A program made the position numbers and the translations under genes. A stretch of DNA of 61,468 nt, from positions 1 through 61,468 of IMG/VR virus record IMGVR_UViG_3300012924_000002. One strand, given 5' to 3'. Source of the DNA: a virus. Taxonomy: Duplodnaviria; Caudoviricetes. Below are positions 2,329 to 46,807 of the stretch, piece after piece; position 1 is the first letter of the stretch; every line of letters begins with the position of its first letter. The notes under the pieces are model-generated. The model had not been told where the DNA came from, searched no databases, and saw nothing but the letters and a program-made list of their open reading frames with translations.

Positions 2329-4098
2329 CTAAACGTCTAGGTCCGTGACCCCGAGGGCCGCGAACTCGGCCGCGATACGCGCGATACTACGGCCTTGGGG
2401 CTTGACAGGGGTAGATCCACTGGTTTCGGGGACGACCAGCCCGTCGGACGCTGCCGCCGGCTCGTTGCCGCTAGCCACCAGCGAGCGCCGCAGCTGAGTA
2501 ACCGGGGCGGCCTCCCGACTCGCATACCGGTAGGGCAGGTTATCCCAGCGCCGGACCATGCGCGGATCGGTCATAGCCCGCTCACCGCGCTTTTTCGTGC
2601 CGCTCGACCACACTCGGTCAGCCAGGCCGGCGTCCTGCGCCTCAGCCCCGGTGAACCAGGTCTCCTCGACCATCATCTGCAGCCAGTCTTCGGCGTTGCC
2701 CGACTTCACTGCGTACGTCTCGGCGATGTTGCGGTCCTGGCGCTGAAGGAACGTCTGGATCTGCCCGGCGACCTCCTCGTTGCCGTCGATCGTGGTCGAT
2801 GCCCGGTGCACCATCCACTGCGCGCCCGGCATCGTCGTGACCACGTCGCAGGCCATCAGGATGAGCGTGGCAGCGCTGGCGATGATGCCGTCACCCCACC
2901 CGCGGATCGTCTGCCCGCCGTCGGACGCATGCCGGATCGACGAGGCGATCGCTACGGCGTCCGTGACTGAGCCTCCCGGCGAGTTGACCCGCACGTTGAT
3001 CACCGGCGTATCGATCTTCGCGAGATCGCGGGCGAACTGGCTGGCGGTCACGCCCATCGACCCACCGATCTCGTCGTAGATCAGGATGTCGGTTTCCGCC
3101 GCGCCGACCGTTTCCGTAACGGTGCCATCTTCCGCCGCCGGGTCGTCGCCCAGTTCCGAACCGGTCACCGCGCGTACCTCATACCAGGGCAGCGCAACGT
3201 TCAGCAGCTCACGCGGGCCGTAGCCGGTCGCCTCCGCGAGCACCGCGTAACGCTCAGCCGTGTTCGCCCGGCGCCACTGCAGCATCCGCACGTGCGGGCT
3301 GGCGGTGCGGTCCACCATCGGTGGCTTCACGACGATTCGCTCCCGGGCCTCCGTCTGCCGTTCGACGTCAGCGACGCTGAGGCGGGCCGCAGCCTCCTCG
3401 CGTGCCGCCCGCGGCAGGTGGTCAAGGGCACGCATGAACTCGCCGGCCGAGCCGGCAATGTCCGTGTACGGGTTCGCACCGTTGTTAACGGCGCTGACGT
3501 CGCCACCGTCCAGGTCATAGGCGCGAATCTGGAAGGTGGTGAAGTCGTCCGTCCACACCCCCTGACCCTCGGGGATCATGAACGCGAAGGACATCTCTTC
3601 GACGTCGCCATCCTTGACGGCCGCGGCGAGTATCTGCACGTCGCCGCGCTCCAGGTTCATCCATGACTCGTGGTGCCCGCCGGTGCTGTCCTCGGTGAGG
3701 ATCAAACTGCCGGTCTTCGTCCGGGCCATTGCGACCCCGAGATGGTTGACCAGAAAGCACACGTTCGGCCGGGCCGCCAGGGTGGCCGCACCAGAGCCCC
3801 CCATGGTCATTTCGACGTAGACGCCATAGTCGTCCCACATCTCGTAACCACGCTCGTAGGCGGTGAAGTAACCCAGGGTGTGGAACTGAAGTTTCCCCGA
3901 CGGACCGGGCTCTTTGGTGCCGCGCATCATCGTCTGGATGGACACTCGCCGGGCGCGGGGCACCCCCGCCACCAGGCTGCGCTGTCGCATGAACGCAGCC
4001 GAGTCGTTGCCGTCCCGTTCAGCTGCCCGTTCTGCTGCGGCGCGCCGTGCGTCCGCGGCGCGCCGTTCGATCTGCGTCGTCACGCTGCTTCCCCTCAC
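2329..4098 (-). CDS. Prohead protease: HK97-type protease fused to a ClpP-like domain
   Basis: N-half FLVNH...MARTK.GSL...EMSFAF; C-half ILIYDEIG...VRVNSPGG...IIASAATLI...MVH...ETWF. Confidence 0.85.
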   Translation of the reverse strand: MRGSSVTTQIERRAADARRAAAERAAERDGNDSAAFMRQRSLVAGVPRARRVSIQTMMRGTKEPGPSGKLQFHTLGYFTAYERGYEMWDDYGVYVEMTMGGSGAATLAARPNVCFLVNHLGVAMARTKTGSLILTEDSTGGHHESWMNLERGDVQILAAAVKDGDVEEMSFAFMIPEGQGVWTDDFTTFQIRAYDLDGGDVSAVNNGANPYTDIAGSAGEFMRALDHLPRAAREEAAARLSVADVERQTEARERIVVKPPMVDRTASPHVRMLQWRRANTAERYAVLAEATGYGPRELLNVALPWYEVRAVTGSELGDDPAAEDGTVTETVGAAETDILIYDEIGGSMGVTASQFARDLAKIDTPVINVRVNSPGGSVTDAVAIASSIRHASDGGQTIRGWGDGIIASAATLILMACDVVTTMPGAQWMVHRASTTIDGNEEVAGQIQTFLQRQDRNIAETYAVKSGNAEDWLQMMVEETWFTGAEAQDAGLADRVWSSGTKKRGERAMTDPRMVRRWDNLPYRYASREAAPVTQLRRSLVASGNEPAAASDGLVVPETSGSTPVKPQGRSIARIAAEFAALGVTDLDV

Positions 4099-5730: not shown

Positions 5731-7367
5731 CCCAGCGACTCCATCACGTCGTAAGAGCCGCCCAGCCACTCCTGAGCGTCGCCGGCCGCTATCGCCAACG
5801 TCGCCGCGTACACCGGGCCGGTGTCCGCGGTCGACTCGTCGCGGTGCCAACTCCACCGGTCGCCGTGGAAATGCTTCACCAGGCCGCCTACGCTCTGATC
5901 GAATTCGGGCTGCCCGGAGTGCTGCAGCCTGCGCAACGTCGGGGCGTTGTCCTCGTCATCGTCAGTCTCCCCGGTCAGGTTGTAGAACGTCGCGCAGGCT
6001 GCGGTCACCTTCGGACTGGGTAACAGCTCGATCGTGAGGTCGACGTTCTCGTCGATCGCTGCCCTCTTCAACGGCGTGTACAGGCCCTCGATAGGCCCGT
6101 TGCGATCGATACCAACCGCGCACACCTTCCGGTTACGGGCCAACGCGATGATCGCGTCTTGCAGCCAGTCCACCCTCGCGCGGCGGTCGATCAGCTCTAC
6201 GTACACGTCACCCTTCTCCTCAACCTGCGCTGCCATGCTGATGGATGCGCTGCTCAGCTGCCGGTTCGCATCGACACCCAACGCGATCGGCTCGCGGAAG
6301 TCGGGAGACCCCGTGCGGCGCAACCCCCACGCCTCACGGCTGATCGTCTTCCACTCCACCACCTGCGTGGTCGGGAAAATCCCCAGGTACTCCGCCGCGA
6401 AGTCCGCTAGCTTGCCCTCGTCGGCAGCGGTCCGGTAGTCCTCCTGGATGCGTGACTCCGGGACCGTGAAACCAAGACCTGGCATGGTGCGCCACCACAC
6501 GTCAGGGTCGCCGCAGTTGACGTCCTCGATCTTCTCCGCTGCGGAGAACTCGAAGTAGGCCCGGCCATGCCGCATATCCGCCCGCACGCGCTGGCGGCCG
6601 GCCTCCATCCGCAGCCTGAGCCACGGCCAGGCGTCCGGCGCGACCCTGGACGCACCCGGCACCATCGACAGCGCCCACAGCTGCGACCATGGCCGGGTCA
6701 TCATGGCGGGGCGCATACCCAGCTCGGTGCGGTTGTCAGGCCGTGACCACGCCTCGTCGATGACCCCCAGGTCGATCGAGTCGCCGGTACCGCCTGTCTT
6801 ACCTGTCGTCGACCCGGGCGACCAGGACGAACCGTTGACCCAGCGCATCTCCTCCTTGTTCTGCGTCAAGGTTGGCGACTGCGCCCACATCTGCCGAAAC
6901 GGTGACTGTTTGATCGCCTCCACGTGCTTACGGCGCCAGCGCACCCGGGCGTCGTCGGCGGTCTGCGCCGTGAAGAACACCCGCTGAGGGCCAGGCTCGG
7001 GGACCTTGATCCCGTACTCCCGGCGGGCAAACTCGACGAGTTCATGGCCGACGCCGGTACATCGGTGGATCATCACCGGCTCGATCTGCTGCGTCTTCCC
7101 GCTCACCTGACGAGGACCGACGAACGTCACATCCGAGTAGGCGAACAGCCCCGTCCTCTCGTCGATCTCCAGCGACACATCCCAGATGTACTGCTGGTGC
7201 GGCATGGGCGGCATCCCCATAGCCGTCGCGATCTTCCCGACCGCCGGGCCGAGTGTCAGTCGGCTAGGGGTCCTTCGGGTAGCGAACCTCGGCGGACACG
7301 GGAGCTCCTCCGGAGCTAGGTGTGCTGAGGAGTTCAGCCAGGAGTTCTCGATCATGGGAATTCGCAT
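5727..7367 (-). CDS. terL: Terminase large subunit (start may be 7355)
   Basis: PMPHQ, PRQVSGKT Walker A, VIDEAW Walker B, ALGVDA nuclease motif; upstream of portal. Confidence 0.92.
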   Translation of the reverse strand: MRIPMIENSWLNSSAHLAPEELPCPPRFATRRTPSRLTLGPAVGKIATAMGMPPMPHQQYIWDVSLEIDERTGLFAYSDVTFVGPRQVSGKTQQIEPVMIHRCTGVGHELVEFARREYGIKVPEPGPQRVFFTAQTADDARVRWRRKHVEAIKQSPFRQMWAQSPTLTQNKEEMRWVNGSSWSPGSTTGKTGGTGDSIDLGVIDEAWSRPDNRTELGMRPAMMTRPWSQLWALSMVPGASRVAPDAWPWLRLRMEAGRQRVRADMRHGRAYFEFSAAEKIEDVNCGDPDVWWRTMPGLGFTVPESRIQEDYRTAADEGKLADFAAEYLGIFPTTQVVEWKTISREAWGLRRTGSPDFREPIALGVDANRQLSSASISMAAQVEEKGDVYVELIDRRARVDWLQDAIIALARNRKVCAVGIDRNGPIEGLYTPLKRAAIDENVDLTIELLPSPKVTAACATFYNLTGETDDDEDNAPTLRRLQHSGQPEFDQSVGGLVKHFHGDRWSWHRDESTADTGPVYAATLAIAAGDAQEWLGGSYDVMESLG

Positions 7368-41799: not shown

Positions 41800-41950
41800 G
41801 AAGAACTATCCCACGTCACGCGTGACAGCGTCAAGGGGTTTCGCCAAGATTCTTCTATCTCTTTTCTGTGACGCGTTTCCGCAGGTCAGAGACCATATTG
41901 GAAAATCTTGGCGCCAATCTTCCCACGCGACGCGTGACAGCGTATAGTCC
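41800..41950. promoter_or_regulatory. Divergent promoter region with two 21-bp motifs
   Basis: Leftward TTGACG-N18-GATAGT; rightward -10 TATAGT; motifs at 41807-41827 and 41919-41939. Confidence 0.65.
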
Positions 41951-41998
41951 CTTTACGTAAGGCACACACGGGCACATGGGATTTCCAGGGAGGGAATC

Positions 41999-42367
41999 AT
42001 GATCCGCAACCTGATCACTGCCGCAGCAGTCATCTCCGCTACCGCGCTCACCGCCTGCGCGCCCCCCGCCCCGCTGAACTGCCCGGCCGCGGACTACGCG
42101 ATCACGACCAGCACCATCCGCGGGCCGCTGAACAACCACACGTGGCCGATCACGATCACCATCACCGACCCTGCCGGCGGTAGCCGCGCCGTCGCTTACG
42201 AGACGCTCGACGACCAGGGCAAGATCCGGGCCGCCGCCACCGTCACCACCCACGGTGGAGCCGCCTCTGCGAAGTGGAACATCGGTGAGTACGTCACCTC
42301 CCTGAAGCTGCGCACCGAGGTCGACTCTGTTGACGGGTGCGACACCACCGACGGCTACATCCGCTGA
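41999..42367 (+). CDS. Lipoprotein
   Basis: Lipobox LTAC; hairpin RBS TTCC-AGGGAG-GGAA. Confidence 0.75.
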   Translation: MIRNLITAAAVISATALTACAPPAPLNCPAADYAITTSTIRGPLNNHTWPITITITDPAGGSRAVAYETLDDQGKIRAAATVTTHGGAASAKWNIGEYVTSLKLRTEVDSVDGCDTTDGYIR

Positions 42368-42405
42368 GCACGATCCACCGACACCACCCCAAGGGAGACC
42401 CGATC

Positions 42406-42621
42406 ATGTTCGAGCCGCAGACCATCCAGCTGAGCCCGTCGTCCGCCGCGGAGATCGTCGTCGAGAACGGTCGCGTCCGACTGATCCACTCCGGGAAGTA
42501 CGGAGACGCCGACGTGACCACCATGTCGGACGACGATGCTGACACGATCGCCGGCGCGCTGAAGGCGGCTGCCGCTGCGAACCGTGCGAACCGCGATGCG
42601 AACGCCTCGCGGGTTCGCTAG
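42406..42621 (+). CDS. Hypothetical protein
   Basis: AAGGGAG RBS. Confidence 0.6.
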   Translation: MFEPQTIQLSPSSAAEIVVENGRVRLIHSGKYGDADVTTMSDDDADTIAGALKAAAAANRANRDANASRVR

Positions 42622-43045
42622 CGAAGATCCAGACATCCCGGCCCCCGTTCGCATGCGAACGGGGGGCCGCTTCGCGTTCGCATGCGAACTTCGCACGAGG
42701 GGCGAACGTGCGCCGTTCGCACCCAGCAGCGAACACGCGTGCCGGAACCGGACAACGCGTGCTACGTTCGCATGCATGTCTGCCGACACGAAAACGAACG
42801 AACGTTCGCGCCCAGTGAGGAGCGAACGTTCGCGACGCCTCATGCGAACGGTCATCGGCTTCGTAGCCGCTTCGGCGTTCGCAGCCTTCGCGATACAGGC
42901 GTGGTTCGCATACGGCTTCGCACGACAGGTACTTAAGCTGCCCGTCGCGCTTTCGTTCGCAGTGCCCGTAGCGAACGACCTGTACATCGTGACGCTGATG
43001 GTTATCAGCTACCTACTTCGCTTCGCGCACCTTCGCGTTCGCGCG
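42575..43045. repeat. Dense TTCGC/GCGAA motif array 1
   Basis: About 29 copies by hand count in ~470 bp; palindrome GTTCGCATGCGAAC at 42647 and 42676. Confidence 0.85.
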
Positions 43046-43717
43046 TACGTCTGGTCGGTGTTGGGGCTGGGCATTGCGACGCAGATCGGCGCCGCCTGGT
43101 CGTTCGAGCGGTGGAGGGCCACGGGCGAACACACGGGGGTGTCGGTCGCCGCGCTGGTACCGGCCGCGCTGCTCGCGGCTGCCATGCACTCGCTGATCAT
43201 CGCGGCGAGGCACATCGACGAGTCAGACGACCAGGGGTACAGGCCGGTCCGGCCTGACCGGGGGTGGCGTGACGCAGCGATCGAGGCCCATGGCAGGCAC
43301 GTCGCCAGCGCCGAGGAGCAGGCCGCAGGTCGCGCCCCGGTGACCGCCCCGCCGTCCCGCCCGGACCGGGCGGCGCAGGCCCCGCCCATCTCGTCAGGCC
43401 GCGGCGCGTCCCGGCCGGCCAACCTGGTCCGTGAGCTGGCCGTGAAGCGTCGGCTCGCTGGTGAGCCGGCGGCTCTGATCGCAGCCGAGCTGGGTGTTAC
43501 TCCGCGGGCCGTACAGGGCTGGGTGAAGGACCATCACCGTACGCAGCGTAACTCTGGATCTAGTGAGATGCAGCGGCCTGCAATTGCCGGCGAGGCCGCT
43601 TTCTCCCCTAAGGAAATCGGGACGCCTGGCCGTGAGATGCAGGGTGATGTTGGAGGGCATGTCGGCCCAAAGGGGATGCCTGCAAGAGGCGCGTCTGACC
43701 GAATGCAAGAGAGTTGA
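42776..43717 (+). CDS. DUF2637/Spd-like membrane protein with C-terminal HTH
   Basis: 4 TM helices with P.A.D motif; IAAELGVT.RAVQGW HTH; next to traB. Confidence 0.7.
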   Translation: MSADTKTNERSRPVRSERSRRLMRTVIGFVAASAFAAFAIQAWFAYGFARQVLKLPVALSFAVPVANDLYIVTLMVISYLLRFAHLRVRAYVWSVLGLGIATQIGAAWSFERWRATGEHTGVSVAALVPAALLAAAMHSLIIAARHIDESDDQGYRPVRPDRGWRDAAIEAHGRHVASAEEQAAGRAPVTAPPSRPDRAAQAPPISSGRGASRPANLVRELAVKRRLAGEPAALIAAELGVTPRAVQGWVKDHHRTQRNSGSSEMQRPAIAGEAAFSPKEIGTPGREMQGDVGGHVGPKGMPARGASDRMQES

Positions 43718-43759
43718 TATTGGTGAAAGAGTCACAGCCGGTGAGCAGGAAGGGGGCGA

Positions 43760-46159
43760 GTGGACGTGAGCACTGACCAGAACTACGTGGGCGGCGGCGG
43801 CCGTGGTAGCGGCCGGATGGGCTACCAGCATGAGCAAATGCACGAGCGCCGGATCCCGGTGCGCGACCGTTTCGTGCCGTTCCTGGCACCCTTCCTGATG
43901 ACGTTCGTCGTCGTGCCCGGGGTCGAGCTGATCTCCTGGGGGTTCTGCAAGCTCTGGGTCGGCTACCTGGGGATGGTGGTCATCGGCTGGTGCGTTACGG
44001 GCAGCCTTGTCGCTGTGGTCTCCTACGGCATCGGCCGCAACGTCAGCAAGCGAGTCCCGTGGGTGTACGTCCACGTCACGATCACCAGCCTCGCGTGGGG
44101 CTACGCATCGGCGTTCACGACCGCGTACGGCCTGTGGACGACACCCCCGTGGCTTGTCGTACACGCGTTCGGTTCGCTTCTGTTCGCACTGTCGTGGGTG
44201 CTGTACCGCATCGATTCGCTTCGCAGTGCGGCTGCGAACAACGATGCGAAGAACTACTGGGGCGAAGTGATCGGGCTTCGCAGTTCGCATCCGCGAAAGA
44301 TCACGCCGACGCCGACGGGGATCGAGATCGAGATCGACCACGGGCCGGGCGAAACGCGAAGCGACGTGCAGGCCGCTGCGAAAAAGCTGGAGTCGGCGAT
44401 GGACGCTGTCGCGGGGCGAACGACCGTGACGGACGTTGCTTCGGGTCGGGCCGGATCTTCGCTCGTTCGCCTCTCGCTGGTCGACGTGTTTCGCGACTGG
44501 TGGGAGGACCCGGGTCCTTCGCATCCGGGCATGTCGTTCGCATACCCGCTTCGCACCGGGTACTACGAGACCGGCGAATGGGAGTGGTTTTCGTTCGCAT
44601 CCTCGCTTCGCTCCCCGCACACCGATTTCGCATCGGAGATGGACACGTTCCTGGGCGCGGCCGGCACGACCGGGTCCGGAAAGTCCGGCGGGATCAACAA
44701 CACTGCCCGGGAGGCACTGACCCGCTGCGACGCGATCGTGTGCTGGCTGGACCGGGCGAAGATCGAACAGAACGCCGGGTGGTGCCTCGACATGCTTGGC
44801 ATGGCAGGCAACGACAGCTCGGCCAAAGCGTTCACGCTGGCGCTGCGCAAGCTCGCCGAGTACCGGGTGAAACTGTTCGGCCAGGTGGCCCTGTCCGCCG
44901 CGCTCGGGACCGACCTCGACAGTGAGCAGGGGCGTAAGTGGACCGCCGAGCTTGCCCAGCAAACCGGTGAGGCCGCCGTCCTGGTGATCGTCGATGAGGC
45001 GGACACCGCGATCCAGGGAACCAACTGGGAGTGGCTGTCCGCCCGCGGCCGGTCGCTGGGGATCTTCCTTCTCGCGGCGACCCCCCGGGCGTCCGCCGCG
45101 GAGGTGCCGGCCCTGGTGCGGGGTTCGATCGGCGCGTGGAAGACGTACGCGATCGGCGACAACTACAGCGACGGCTTCACCCTGTCGGCGGAGACGATGG
45201 ACGCTGGTGCTGACCCGAAGCGTCTGCGTTCGCCGGGGTTGCACTACCTGGACCGGGCGCCGGGTGTTGACCTGCGCCACTGCGCGACCCTGGCCCGGGA
45301 GTTCCGGACGTCCCCCGGTCGGCTACGCGCGTCCGTATTGAAATACAGGGGGGTCACGTTCCAGCCGATGGGTTTCAGTCGGGGTGCGATCGACGCCATG
45401 GGCGACTCGTATCGGCAGTGCAACCCGGCCCGGCTGCTGCCCGGCTGGCAGCCACCCGCGCGCGACGATGAGCTACCCGAGCATGGGCGGCGCACGCAGG
45501 TCGGCCCGGACTTCGTTCAGCGGGTGCTGACCGCGGTTGTCGACGGGTCCGTGGCGAGCACCCCCGACGAGATGGCGGAAGCCCGTCGGATCTTGACGAG
45601 CAACGGAGTGCAGCTCCCCGCGCCGCAGGCAGGGCCGGGCGGCAACATGACTTCCACCGACCGACTCGGTCCGGTGGGCGACCAAGATGATCAGGAGGAT
45701 GACGAGGACATGCGAGCCACCGCACAGGGAACTGACGAGGAGGCCGGGATCGCCCGGCCTATCGACCCGCGGAGCCTGCTGGACGATGACCAGTGGGACG
45801 ACTTCCAGCAGGCGAACCCGTCGATGGAACTGCCGGTCCGCGACGGCCCGGAGATGACGTTCGAGCACGCGAAGCCGGTCTGGGAGTCCGACGCCGTGGA
45901 GCGGGAGCTGGACCACGTGATCGTGCTGTTCAAGCGGACCGGCAAGACGACGTTCACCAACTCGGACGTGTTGGAGGCGATGCGGTGCTACTTCGACCCG
46001 TCGACCTGTTCCCGCCGACTGGAGGCCCTGTCGACGGGCTCCCGTACCGCGCCGGGCGGCTTGGGCGTGACCCGGACAGGCCGCGGTGAGTTCGAGATCT
46101 TGGGCGAACTCGACGAGTCGTACCAGCGCCCCCGTCCGCACCGCCCCGAAGGGAACTGA
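43760..46159 (+). CDS. traB: TraB-like FtsK/SpoIIIE conjugal DNA translocase
   Basis: N-terminal TM helices, AGTTGSGKS Walker A, VIVDEAD Walker B, RGRSLGI.L..AT.R, C-terminal wHTH. Confidence 0.8.
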   Translation: MDVSTDQNYVGGGGRGSGRMGYQHEQMHERRIPVRDRFVPFLAPFLMTFVVVPGVELISWGFCKLWVGYLGMVVIGWCVTGSLVAVVSYGIGRNVSKRVPWVYVHVTITSLAWGYASAFTTAYGLWTTPPWLVVHAFGSLLFALSWVLYRIDSLRSAAANNDAKNYWGEVIGLRSSHPRKITPTPTGIEIEIDHGPGETRSDVQAAAKKLESAMDAVAGRTTVTDVASGRAGSSLVRLSLVDVFRDWWEDPGPSHPGMSFAYPLRTGYYETGEWEWFSFASSLRSPHTDFASEMDTFLGAAGTTGSGKSGGINNTAREALTRCDAIVCWLDRAKIEQNAGWCLDMLGMAGNDSSAKAFTLALRKLAEYRVKLFGQVALSAALGTDLDSEQGRKWTAELAQQTGEAAVLVIVDEADTAIQGTNWEWLSARGRSLGIFLLAATPRASAAEVPALVRGSIGAWKTYAIGDNYSDGFTLSAETMDAGADPKRLRSPGLHYLDRAPGVDLRHCATLAREFRTSPGRLRASVLKYRGVTFQPMGFSRGAIDAMGDSYRQCNPARLLPGWQPPARDDELPEHGRRTQVGPDFVQRVLTAVVDGSVASTPDEMAEARRILTSNGVQLPAPQAGPGGNMTSTDRLGPVGDQDDQEDDEDMRATAQGTDEEAGIARPIDPRSLLDDDQWDDFQQANPSMELPVRDGPEMTFEHAKPVWESDAVERELDHVIVLFKRTGKTTFTNSDVLEAMRCYFDPSTCSRRLEALSTGSRTAPGGLGVTRTGRGEFEILGELDESYQRPRPHRPEGN
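44165..44635. repeat. Dense TTCGC/GCGAA motif array 2, inside traB
   Basis: About 24 copies by hand count in ~470 bp. Confidence 0.8.
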
Positions 46160-46161
46160 TC

Positions 46162-46593
46162 ATGGCTACGAGCAACACAGCAGCGGCAGGCGCCGGTCCC
46201 ATCCTCATCTTCCCCCCGAAGACGATCGTCATCAGGGGCGACGTCTCGGCGACCGAATGGTGCAACGCCGGCCGCGCCCAGTTCGACGGGTTCGCCCGTT
46301 GGATGGACAGCTACACCGCGGCGCTGGCCGCGGACCTGGCCGAGATGATGCGTAACGAGGGCATCGACGGGCAGACCTCCATCGGCCCGATCTCGTGGGG
46401 GTCGTCGGCGCGCGCCGCCGCCGCGAAAGCGACGAAGCCGTTGAGAGCGATCGCGTCGGAAGCGTCGAACATGGCCCGCATGTTCACCGTCGCCGACAAG
46501 CAGATGCAGGCGCAGGTGTTCGAGGTGATCCGGCAGGTGCGGGCGGCGCGTGAGCGTCAGCAGCGCGGCTCCGGGCTGTCGATCGGCGCGTGA
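46162..46593 (+). CDS. Helical transfer-accessory (TraA-like) protein
   Basis: Directly after traB; all-alpha; family assignment from context. Confidence 0.5.
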   Translation: MATSNTAAAGAGPILIFPPKTIVIRGDVSATEWCNAGRAQFDGFARWMDSYTAALAADLAEMMRNEGIDGQTSIGPISWGSSARAAAAKATKPLRAIASEASNMARMFTVADKQMQAQVFEVIRQVRAARERQQRGSGLSIGA

Positions 46594-46597
46594 CCTC

Positions 46598-46789
46598 ATG
46601 CATCCGAAGGACGAACGGCTGATGACTCCGGGCGAGGTTGCCGCACTGTTTCGGGTGGACCCGAAGACGGTGACTCGGTGGGCGAAGGTCGGGCGGATCG
46701 GCTCCATCCGCACACCGGGCGGTCATCGCCGGTTCCGCGAGTCAGAGGTTCGGGCGCTTCTCAAGGCGCCCGGTACCGACACCGAGTAA
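46598..46789 (+). CDS. bldC: BldC-family (MerR/Xis-like) DNA-binding protein
   Basis: LMTPGEVAALFRVDPKTVTRWAK.G.I.SIRT.GGHRRFRESEVRALL, very close to the BldC consensus. Confidence 0.9.
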   Translation: MHPKDERLMTPGEVAALFRVDPKTVTRWAKVGRIGSIRTPGGHRRFRESEVRALLKAPGTDTE

Positions 46790-46807
46790 AAGGAGAGGGG
46801 ACGGACG

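Follow-up and report, generated by a model that had tools for sequence, protein, structure and literature searches.

The DNA analyzed here, referred to as the window, is the complete genome of a tailed phage (Duplodnaviria; Caudoviricetes), 61,468 bp in size, from the IMG/VR collection (virus record IMGVR_UViG_3300012924_000002). Within a block of genes on the + strand, located approximately between positions 41999 and 49436, the window encodes a protein that combines predicted transmembrane (TM) helices with a C-terminal helix-turn-helix (HTH) domain, hereinafter the membrane-HTH protein, and, directly downstream, a TraB-like protein with an FtsK-type motor domain; the same gene order is found in the relatives of this tra module wherever the sequenced flank is long enough. 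Superimposed on the module are two dense arrays of the pentanucleotide TTCGC or its complement GCGAA, one (array 1) around the start of the membrane-HTH gene and the other (array 2) inside the traB-like gene, hereinafter traB (Table 1). An original prediction, made from the sequence alone, held that array 2 consists of about 24 motif copies in approximately 470 bp, that it reflects selection on DNA layered over the protein code, and that the two arrays might act together as a bipartite site. The analysis described below bears out these proposals and additionally addresses the identity of the protein that might read the arrays.

Table 1. Features of the tra module in the window, and counterparts of the third array in related loci (coordinates refer to the respective record; a point stands for no assigned strand)
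Feature	Record	Coordinates	Strand	Position relative to traB	Description
Array 1	window	42577..43042	.		29 TTCGC/GCGAA copies
Palindrome	window	42642..42665	.		perfect, 24 bp, CCCCCGTTCGCATGCGAACGGGGG; two inverted motif copies, 42648 (+) and 42655 (-)
Membrane-HTH gene	window	42776..43717	+		313 aa; conserved MSADT start, ~4 TM helices, long Pro/Ala/Arg-rich linker, C-terminal HTH
Array 3 (tentative)	window	43569..43709	.	just 5' of traB	TGCA(A/G), five sites, overlapping the 3' end of the upstream membrane-HTH gene; weak
traB-like gene	window	43760..46159	+		799 aa; TM region at the N-terminus, FtsK-type motor, acidic linker, winged helix at the C-terminus
Array 2	window	44173..44631	.	traB codons ~138-291	24 TTCGC copies, 15 on +, 9 on - (GCGAA)
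Array 3	L002	3796-3991		upstream of traB	TGCAAG; 15/15 of the TGCAA copies of the locus in 200 bp
Array 3	L004	3324-3506		upstream of traB	10 TGCAA copies
Array 3	L010 and L011			upstream of traB	TGCAATTGCA
Array 3	L008 and L012			upstream of traB	TGAAA
Array 3	L019	6318-6533		3' end of traB	15 TGGAAG copies
Array 3	L015	5612-5760		3' end of traB	GAATTCG
Array 3	L005 and L006			3' end of traB	GGAAAG
Array 3	L018			3' end of traB	CGCAATTGCG
Array 3	L020	1401-1534		3' end of traB	8 CAGGAAC copies
Array 3	L027			3' end of traB	TGCAA

The copies in array 2, with the consensus (G/C)TTCGC(A), match the predicted number and, in line with the predicted spread over different frames, occupy all three reading frames of traB (7, 9 and 8 copies in frames 0, 1 and 2, respectively). 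Shuffling of synonymous codons within traB leaves 6.3±1.4 copies in this region, with a maximum of 11, and when the codons are instead sampled at their frequencies in 17 other genes, 5.9±1.3 copies result; under either procedure, the observed 24 copies were reached in none of the 2000 replicates. The remainder of traB shows no enrichment, with 5 copies observed against 2.9 expected after the array and none against 0.24 before it. When the whole window is shuffled, 161±11 copies of TTCGC/GCGAA are obtained per 61.5 kb, that is, about 1.2 per 470 bp; the actual total of 249 was equalled in none of 100 such shuffles. The codons that form the motif, including CTT, GCA and AGT which the prediction had singled out as unusual, are rare in the 17 reference genes (CTT 0.05, GCA 0.10, CGA 0.06, AGT 0.03, TCT 0.04 and CCT 0.09). 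Rare codons account for 27 of the 157 codons in array 2 as opposed to 61 of the other 642 codons of traB, 19 of these 27 overlap a motif copy, and the G+C content of third codon positions is 0.76 in the array compared to 0.88 elsewhere in the gene.

Array 1 extends from the 3' end of an open reading frame (ORF) for a 94-aa protein through the intergenic region into the membrane-HTH gene, of which it covers the first ~90 codons. These 90 codons contain 14 copies, compared to 6.8±0.8 in the shuffles (0 of 2000 replicates), and another 10 copies are packed into the 154 bp of the intergenic part. The intervening DNA of about 1.1 kb had been described as poor in the motif, and indeed, only a single copy is present in the 1119 bp between positions 43046 and 44164; across the window, the only 500-bp bins with at least 6 copies are those of arrays 1 and 2. 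Each array spans approximately 470 bp and includes both orientations of the motif at irregular spacing, without clear helical phasing. With respect to the polarity of the orientations, there is no more than a weak trend in array 1 (area under the curve above 0.5 in 9 of 10 loci, with p<0.05 in 2). Array 1 also encompasses the palindrome, which is G+C-rich, lies directly 3' of the stop codon of the 94-aa ORF, and could be a hairpin or terminator or, alternatively, a high-affinity site for a dimer.

A protein search identified 47 TraB homologues at E<=0.001, several of them on contigs of 62-66 kb, and the DNA of 5 viral and 14 metagenome loci, along with one viral locus added later (L027), was compared to that of the window. 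The question raised by the original prediction, whether homologues carry an array at the same place, can be answered in the affirmative: the array recurs across divergent TraB proteins, with about 30-68% identity among the loci that share the two-array layout. In these relatives, array 1 is located ~0.5-2 kb upstream of the traB start, and array 2 lies at +250 to +1100. Both arrays are strong in L002, L006, L010, L011, L015 and L019, and both are present in L027, which was found with a different query; the contigs of L007, L017 and L018 are confined to the region of array 2, which is strong, and in L016, array 1 alone is strong. In 14 of 18 loci, the count of the locus's own word in the array 2 region exceeded that in all 1000 synonymous shuffles, and in the four loci with weaker arrays (L003, L005, L012 and L016), it was reached in 2-6 of the 1000. 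In an unbiased scan of all 5-mers against the shuffles, GCGAA ranked first in 10 of the 18 loci, and the top 5-mer of L004, L008 and L009 was CGCAA. In the complete genomes of the window phage, G001 and G005, no bin other than those at the two array positions attains 7 copies per 500 bp.

The word itself differs among the loci, and it does so in a coordinated manner. In L004, the word is TTGCG (complement CGCAA); the upstream part has 21 copies, traB has another 13, and each of the remaining bins has at most about one. L008 carries TTGCG in array 2, with the upstream part lying beyond the contig, and in L003, the related word GGCGCA(A) is found in both arrays. L002, a TTCGC locus, can be compared closely with L004, given that the TraB proteins of the two are sisters (tree support 100/99) with 68% identity overall and 77-86% identity across array 2. 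Homologous codons show the exchange of one word for the other in situ: TGG CGA AAG in L002 corresponds to TGG CGC AAG in L004, TCG TTC GCT to TCG TTT GCG, CTC GCT TCG to CTT GCG TCG, and ATT CGC to GTT GCG, the latter at the cost of an Arg-to-Ala change. Because homologous codons switch the word in place, it is the DNA word that is kept rather than the protein sequence; together with the synonymous shuffles and the rare codons, this demonstrates the proposed DNA-level selection over the protein code. Both arrays always share one word, including the cases in which the word differs between loci, and since they carry the same word and change together, both appear to serve one reader. Given that the layout recurs, the words match and the word flips in place, arrays 1 and 2 are, as judged from these sequence comparisons, one selected bipartite protein-binding element, in agreement with the pairing suggested by the original prediction.

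Two relatives display additional features. In L007 (positions 10-730), the closest relative with available DNA (60% TraB identity), array 2 is enriched in two words, GCGAA (17 copies) and GCGCA (17 copies, including TGCGCA palindromes); the specificity of the reader in this locus may be relaxed or dual, or the locus may represent an intermediate of a word switch. A poly-C-rich run with 23 overlapping CCCCCC matches is found in L004 (positions 1-300), at the end of this 79-kb viral contig, and is probably an artefact of the assembly or of the contig end.

The TraB-like protein shows the features of TraB/FtsK-SpoIIIE translocases, namely an N-terminal membrane part, a RecA-type motor with Walker A (GTTGSGKSG) and Walker B (VIVDEAD) motifs, and a C-terminal winged helix; the TM helices of both this protein and the membrane-HTH protein were assigned by eye from the translations and alignments. 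The profile of the TraB family matches FtsK structures with E=7e-5. The match to the NCBIfam family NF041214 (plasmid_TraB; E=2.7e-43) scores 148 bits compared to the equivalog cut-off of 800 bits, so that the phage protein is a distant relative of plasmid_TraB rather than an equivalog. The last 110 residues are modelled as a winged helix (predicted local distance difference test, pLDDT, 85), and the Foldseek matches of this model are all winged-helix proteins with E-values that are not significant, from which the fold class alone was taken. The membrane-HTH protein matches HTH_28 (E=1e-4), and HTH_23 is detected in 7 of 9 homologues. Its C-terminal domain is modelled as a three-helix bundle (pLDDT 86), for which the best look-alikes, at Foldseek E-values that are not significant for a domain of this small size, are the HTH domains of transposases and homeodomains. 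No named homologues of the membrane-HTH family were found, and the TraA protein encoded upstream in pCQ3 proved unrelated (hhalign probability 0.15%). In L002 (2752-3753) and L015 (2455-3309), a zinc-ribbon-like insert (CPxCGG...H..RRHP) separates the membrane part from the HTH; a zf-Di19 match is seen in 2 of 9 aligned members. Prediction of a complex between TraB residues 30-300 and the membrane part of the membrane-HTH protein yielded a score of 0.00, which is evidence neither way.

The original prediction suggested that a different motif at the same place in homologues might covary with the HTH sequence. The comparison bore this out: the word covaries with an HTH domain, and the domain that it appears to track is that of the upstream membrane protein and not the winged helix of TraB. 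In all 11 loci without enrichment of CGCAA (TTGCG), namely the window, L002, L005, L006, L010, L011, L015, L016, L017, L019 and L027, the helix of the membrane-HTH protein has the form R[ANS][VI][QE]xW; the helix of L027 was read only after its arrays had been seen. The six loci with the helix RTAQLW (L003, L004, L008, L009, L012 and L013) include four (L003, L004, L008 and L009) with at least 7 CGCAA copies per kb in array 2 and none with a strong GCGAA array, and are spread over three TraB subclades, beside sisters that lack RTAQLW. The TraB winged helix closest to that of L002 is the one of L004 (57% identity), and the two loci have the same array 3 word, TGCAAG, whereas the type of the membrane-HTH protein (31% identity) and the word of arrays 1 and 2 are different. 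Conversely, the putative recognition helix of TraB varies among the TTCGC loci (SRRL, SKRF, SDRL, SERF and TRRF) and is nearly identical across word classes, as in L011 (ATVSRRLTAL) and L013 (ATMSRRLTAL) and also in L002 and L004. Pairwise identities of TraB, the TraB C-terminus or the HTH domain did not separate pairs of loci with the same word from those with different words; the helix class alone did. Because its recognition helix class tracks the word, we infer that the membrane-HTH protein is the best candidate for the reader of arrays 1 and 2. A homeodomain-like monomer on a flexible tether, as suggested by the model, would fit asymmetric sites of 5-6 bp that occur in either orientation at irregular spacing.

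A third, smaller array adjoins traB. In the relatives, it is a compact cluster of a locus-specific 6-8-mer, mostly in direct repeats, and its position depends on the TraB clade: in one it precedes traB, in the other (clade B) it is found at the 3' end of the gene. The words group with variants of the TraB alpha3 helix: SRRL with TG[CA]AA, SKRF with GGAAAG, SERF with TGGAAG, and SDRL with GAATTCG. The clt loci described for conjugative plasmids are single, have a length of 50-175 bp and contain 3-9 repeats of 5-9 bp, mostly in direct orientation, on the 3' side of tra, and the clt of pWTY27 reaches 16 bp into traA (PMC3583192). By its sequence, array 3 of the relatives looks like the published clt, that is, a few repeats of 5-9 bp beside tra that are read by alpha3. 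If array 3 is the loading site of TraB, arrays 1 and 2 would constitute a separate, previously undescribed layer.

We consider it possible, without going so far as to call it probable, that array 2 is one half of a docking array of ~53 sites through which the membrane-HTH protein, as the reader, anchors phage DNA beside TraB for transfer. Selection has written the ~53 short asymmetric sites (core TTCGC, often TTCGCA) over the intergenic region and two coding sequences, and the two arrays bracket the membrane-HTH gene, the 5' end of traB and, in the clade of the window, the small clt-like cluster. Under the docking scenario, the membrane-HTH protein would be anchored by its ~4 TM helices, and its monomeric HTH, carried on the flexible linker, would take individual sites irrespective of their orientation. 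The numerous copies bound in this way would fasten ~1 kb of the phage genome, on each side of the 5' region of traB, to the membrane next to the TraB hexamer. The winged helix of TraB would then mediate loading on the locus-specific repeats nearby, TraB would pump double-stranded DNA, and the phage or its plasmid form would thus spread from cell to cell or from compartment to compartment. The relation between the membrane-HTH protein and TraB could be likened to that between the small subunit and the motor of a terminase, or between SpdB2 and TraB of pSVH1.

Several observations weigh against this docking scenario or limit its scope. The helix of L012 is identical to that of L004, yet L012 has no CGCAA array, and L009 and L013, both with RTAQLW, retain weak GCGAA enrichment, so that the helix predicts the word only in part. 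The phylogenetically independent contrasts number only ~2-3. Array 1 overlaps the membrane-HTH gene, and hence linkage alone would make the two travel together, leaving only the match with array 2 as informative. TraB's C-terminal portion also differs between L002 and L004, at the 57% identity noted above. Finally, the window's own array 3 is weak, and flanking of the loading site by arrays 1 and 2 is not general because array 3 of clade B is found beyond both arrays, at the traB 3' end.

Among the alternative explanations, a by-product of the amino acid sequence, through dipeptides such as F-A, L-R and A-N, or mere chance can be practically dismissed. Some sites do fall on conserved residues (SFA, LRT, xSH) that are common to 8-11 of 12 loci, but the synonymous shuffles never approach the observed count, 41 of the 81 aligned site positions in the 12 loci are private to a single locus (4 are common to at least 8), and the word is changed synonymously between sisters; the shuffles, in the window and in the relatives, and the in-place switch between sisters exclude this explanation. 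It is also very unlikely that the word is read by a host protein, or by a phage protein encoded outside the module, with the changes of the word reflecting host switches: the conservation of TTCGC across highly divergent TraB and membrane-HTH proteins would be accounted for, but neither the confinement of the arrays to the tra module nor the correspondence of the word class to the helix class of the membrane-HTH protein would. A centromere-like site for partition or positioning of a plasmid form, comparable to parC1/parC2 of pB171, parC of R1 or SpdA-sps, has more specific precedents. The two clusters of many short repeats resemble centromeres of types Ib and II, which speaks for this possibility, and short-repeat plasmid centromeres, such as parC of R1, parC1/parC2 of pB171 and parH of TP228, are cooperatively bound by small HTH or ribbon-helix-helix proteins. 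Similarly, the pac sites of SPP1 and P22 are located inside coding genes, with the small terminase subunit handing the DNA to the motor; these centromeres and pac sites include cases with a cluster on either side of the site of action and cases embedded in coding sequence. The absence of an integrase among the window ORFs scanned and the presence of genes for an AAA_25 helicase, an ERF recombinase and a RuvC-like nuclease are compatible with a plasmid form, and SpdA2, whose target is a palindrome within the spdA2 gene, has an effect on stability (PMC4170104). The phage arrays differ from such systems in that they are always tied to the traB module, the candidate reader is membrane-anchored, and the associated motor is a conjugation-type pump rather than that of a terminase; moreover, no ParA/ParM-type nucleoside triphosphatase was detected among the ~50 window ORFs scanned against Pfam, PHROGs and NCBIfam, and the hallmark of partition loci, an adjacent ParA/ParM gene with a gene for a centromere-binding protein, is lacking among the neighbours and the other ORFs scanned. 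A centromere function appears distinctly unlikely.

In Streptomyces plasmids, traB is a kil gene that is silenced by TraR/KorA (PMC4447253), and arrays 1 and 2 might be operators of this kil-kor type, coated by the membrane-HTH protein or another repressor that blocks a toxic traB. No GntR-type regulator was found among the array neighbours scanned, and array 1, with its palindrome, covers the start of the membrane-HTH gene, as might be expected under this explanation; nevertheless, we regard it as quite unlikely given that ~25 sites per array are far in excess of the usual operators, that a membrane anchor would be unusual for a repressor, and that no sigma-70-like promoter is present inside array 1. 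The sole promoter-like signal near the arrays is a pair of back-to-back sigma-70-like matches at 41805-41948, where the leftward genes meet the rightward tra block. The remaining alternative is an oversized clt, with the winged helix of TraB recognizing TTCGC as pSVH1 TraB recognizes its 8-bp TRS, and hexamers assembling on the arrays. Known TraB proteins bind clt repeats via alpha3 of the winged helix (PMC3583192, PMC4170104, PMC4447253), array 2 sits in traB, and the TraB C-terminus of the phage is modelled as a winged helix; like the clt of pSVH1, pJV1, pIJ101 and pWTY27, the arrays are element-specific short repeats that adjoin or overlap an FtsK-like tra gene. In contrast to the size range of clt and TRS sites given above (PMC3583192), arrays 1 and 2 comprise 24-29 sites each, in both orientations and over ~470 bp, twice, upstream of traB and inside its 5' third; their word does not appear to follow the TraB helix, which varies among loci with the same word and is nearly the same across different words, and the small locus-specific array beside traB fits the classical clt better. 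We therefore view the oversized clt as unlikely, although it is to be taken seriously, and retain docking by the membrane-HTH protein as the working interpretation.

Comparison with other characterized systems shows both precedents and differences. In pIJ101, SpdA2, a protein of the transfer and spread module, recognizes the sps site in its own coding sequence, and synonymous removal of the site was the test employed (PMC4170104); unlike the phage arrays, sps is a 12-bp palindrome in 2-3 copies, bound by a small soluble protein, with no second array in traB. SpdB2 of pSVH1 resembles the membrane-HTH protein as a membrane protein of the TraB module that interacts with TraB and binds double-stranded DNA (PMC4170104, PMC4447253); its binding is reported there to be non-specific, whereas the phage protein carries an HTH of the sequence-recognizing type and is set apart by this description. 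The arrays are also distinct from KOPS (FtsK orienting polar sequences) and SRS (SpoIIIE recognition sequences), polar 8-bp words that are distributed genome-wide, in that the TTCGC word is clustered in two places and occurs in both orientations, and from iteron origins, in view of the irregular spacing, the 67% G+C content of the array region, and the distance of 14 kb to the only replication-type gene found (AAA_25). Streptomyces plasmid-phages, such as pZL12 and the elements of the pCQ3/pCQ4 type, have been reported as phage-like elements with tra genes (PMC4170104, PMC3583192). The nearest named element is pCQ3 of Streptomyces sp. W9 (L024; NC_013449.1), which differs in its repeats and in the unrelated upstream TraA; no TTCGC arrays are present in the 10.9 kb inspected. 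In pCQ3, nine copies of CGCATCA are located inside a hypothetical gene upstream of traA (3101-3500), and six copies of CTGACA are found at the 3' end of traB (6176-6575); arrays of repeats may accompany tra genes more widely than the usual description of a single clt suggests. Binding sites inside coding genes are already known, as exemplified by sps in spdA2 (PMC4170104) and the pWTY27 clt in traA (PMC3583192), and so are paired short-repeat arrays. The phage system differs from these in its size, with 24-29 sites in each of two arrays, and in that a conserved domain of the pump's own gene is recoded, the word is rewritten in a coordinated manner, the candidate for the reader is tethered to the membrane, and the system resides in complete phage genomes; in the literature searched on the TTCGC word and on FtsK-type transfer in actinobacterial phage-plasmids, no such arrays were found.

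The genomic setting is that of a phage. The two ends of the window share a 123-bp repeat, and the window encodes a major head protein, maturation protease, portal protein, large terminase and tape measure protein, in addition to the recombination and helicase genes mentioned above; the scans covered ~50 ORFs, that is, part of the window's total, and most of the other ORFs among them have no family matches. No RNA family was detected by Rfam in the region 41800-46800. Five viral records, all rated complete and 62.7-79.5 kb in size, encode large terminases with 47-57% identity to that of the window, and because these same five records carry the tra module, the module belongs to a phage family. 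Relatives of TraB or the membrane-HTH protein were not found in four scans of one genome per prokaryote species, and 50,697 phage records contained neither DNA nor protein matches. When viral contigs were searched with the window protein alone, no match was obtained; of the further viral-contig scans, those with two family alignments returned only loci already in the set, and one with a smaller alignment contributed L027. Among plasmid records, the only matches were two distant Streptomyces TraB proteins, those of pCQ3 and W75, with 29% identity over 38-39%.

A broader, rather doubtful extension of these findings is that a family of tailed phages from soil-type metagenomes, with complete genomes of 62-80 kb, might possess a conjugation-type pump for double-stranded DNA along with a three-part cis site, comprising two large docking arrays, partly recoded into the pump gene and read by a homeodomain-like protein tethered to the membrane, and a small TraB loading array, and might spread between hyphal compartments or cells without virions. 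At a more general level, the arrays are a natural case of a protein-binding array that is overprinted on a conserved coding sequence and rewritten codon by codon as the specificity changes. They point to an undescribed layer of recognition for FtsK-like conjugative pumps, in which a membrane-anchored, sequence-specific adaptor would act on a large docking site. The presence of a conjugation-type pump in phage genomes bears on the movement of phages and plasmids through mycelial bacteria.

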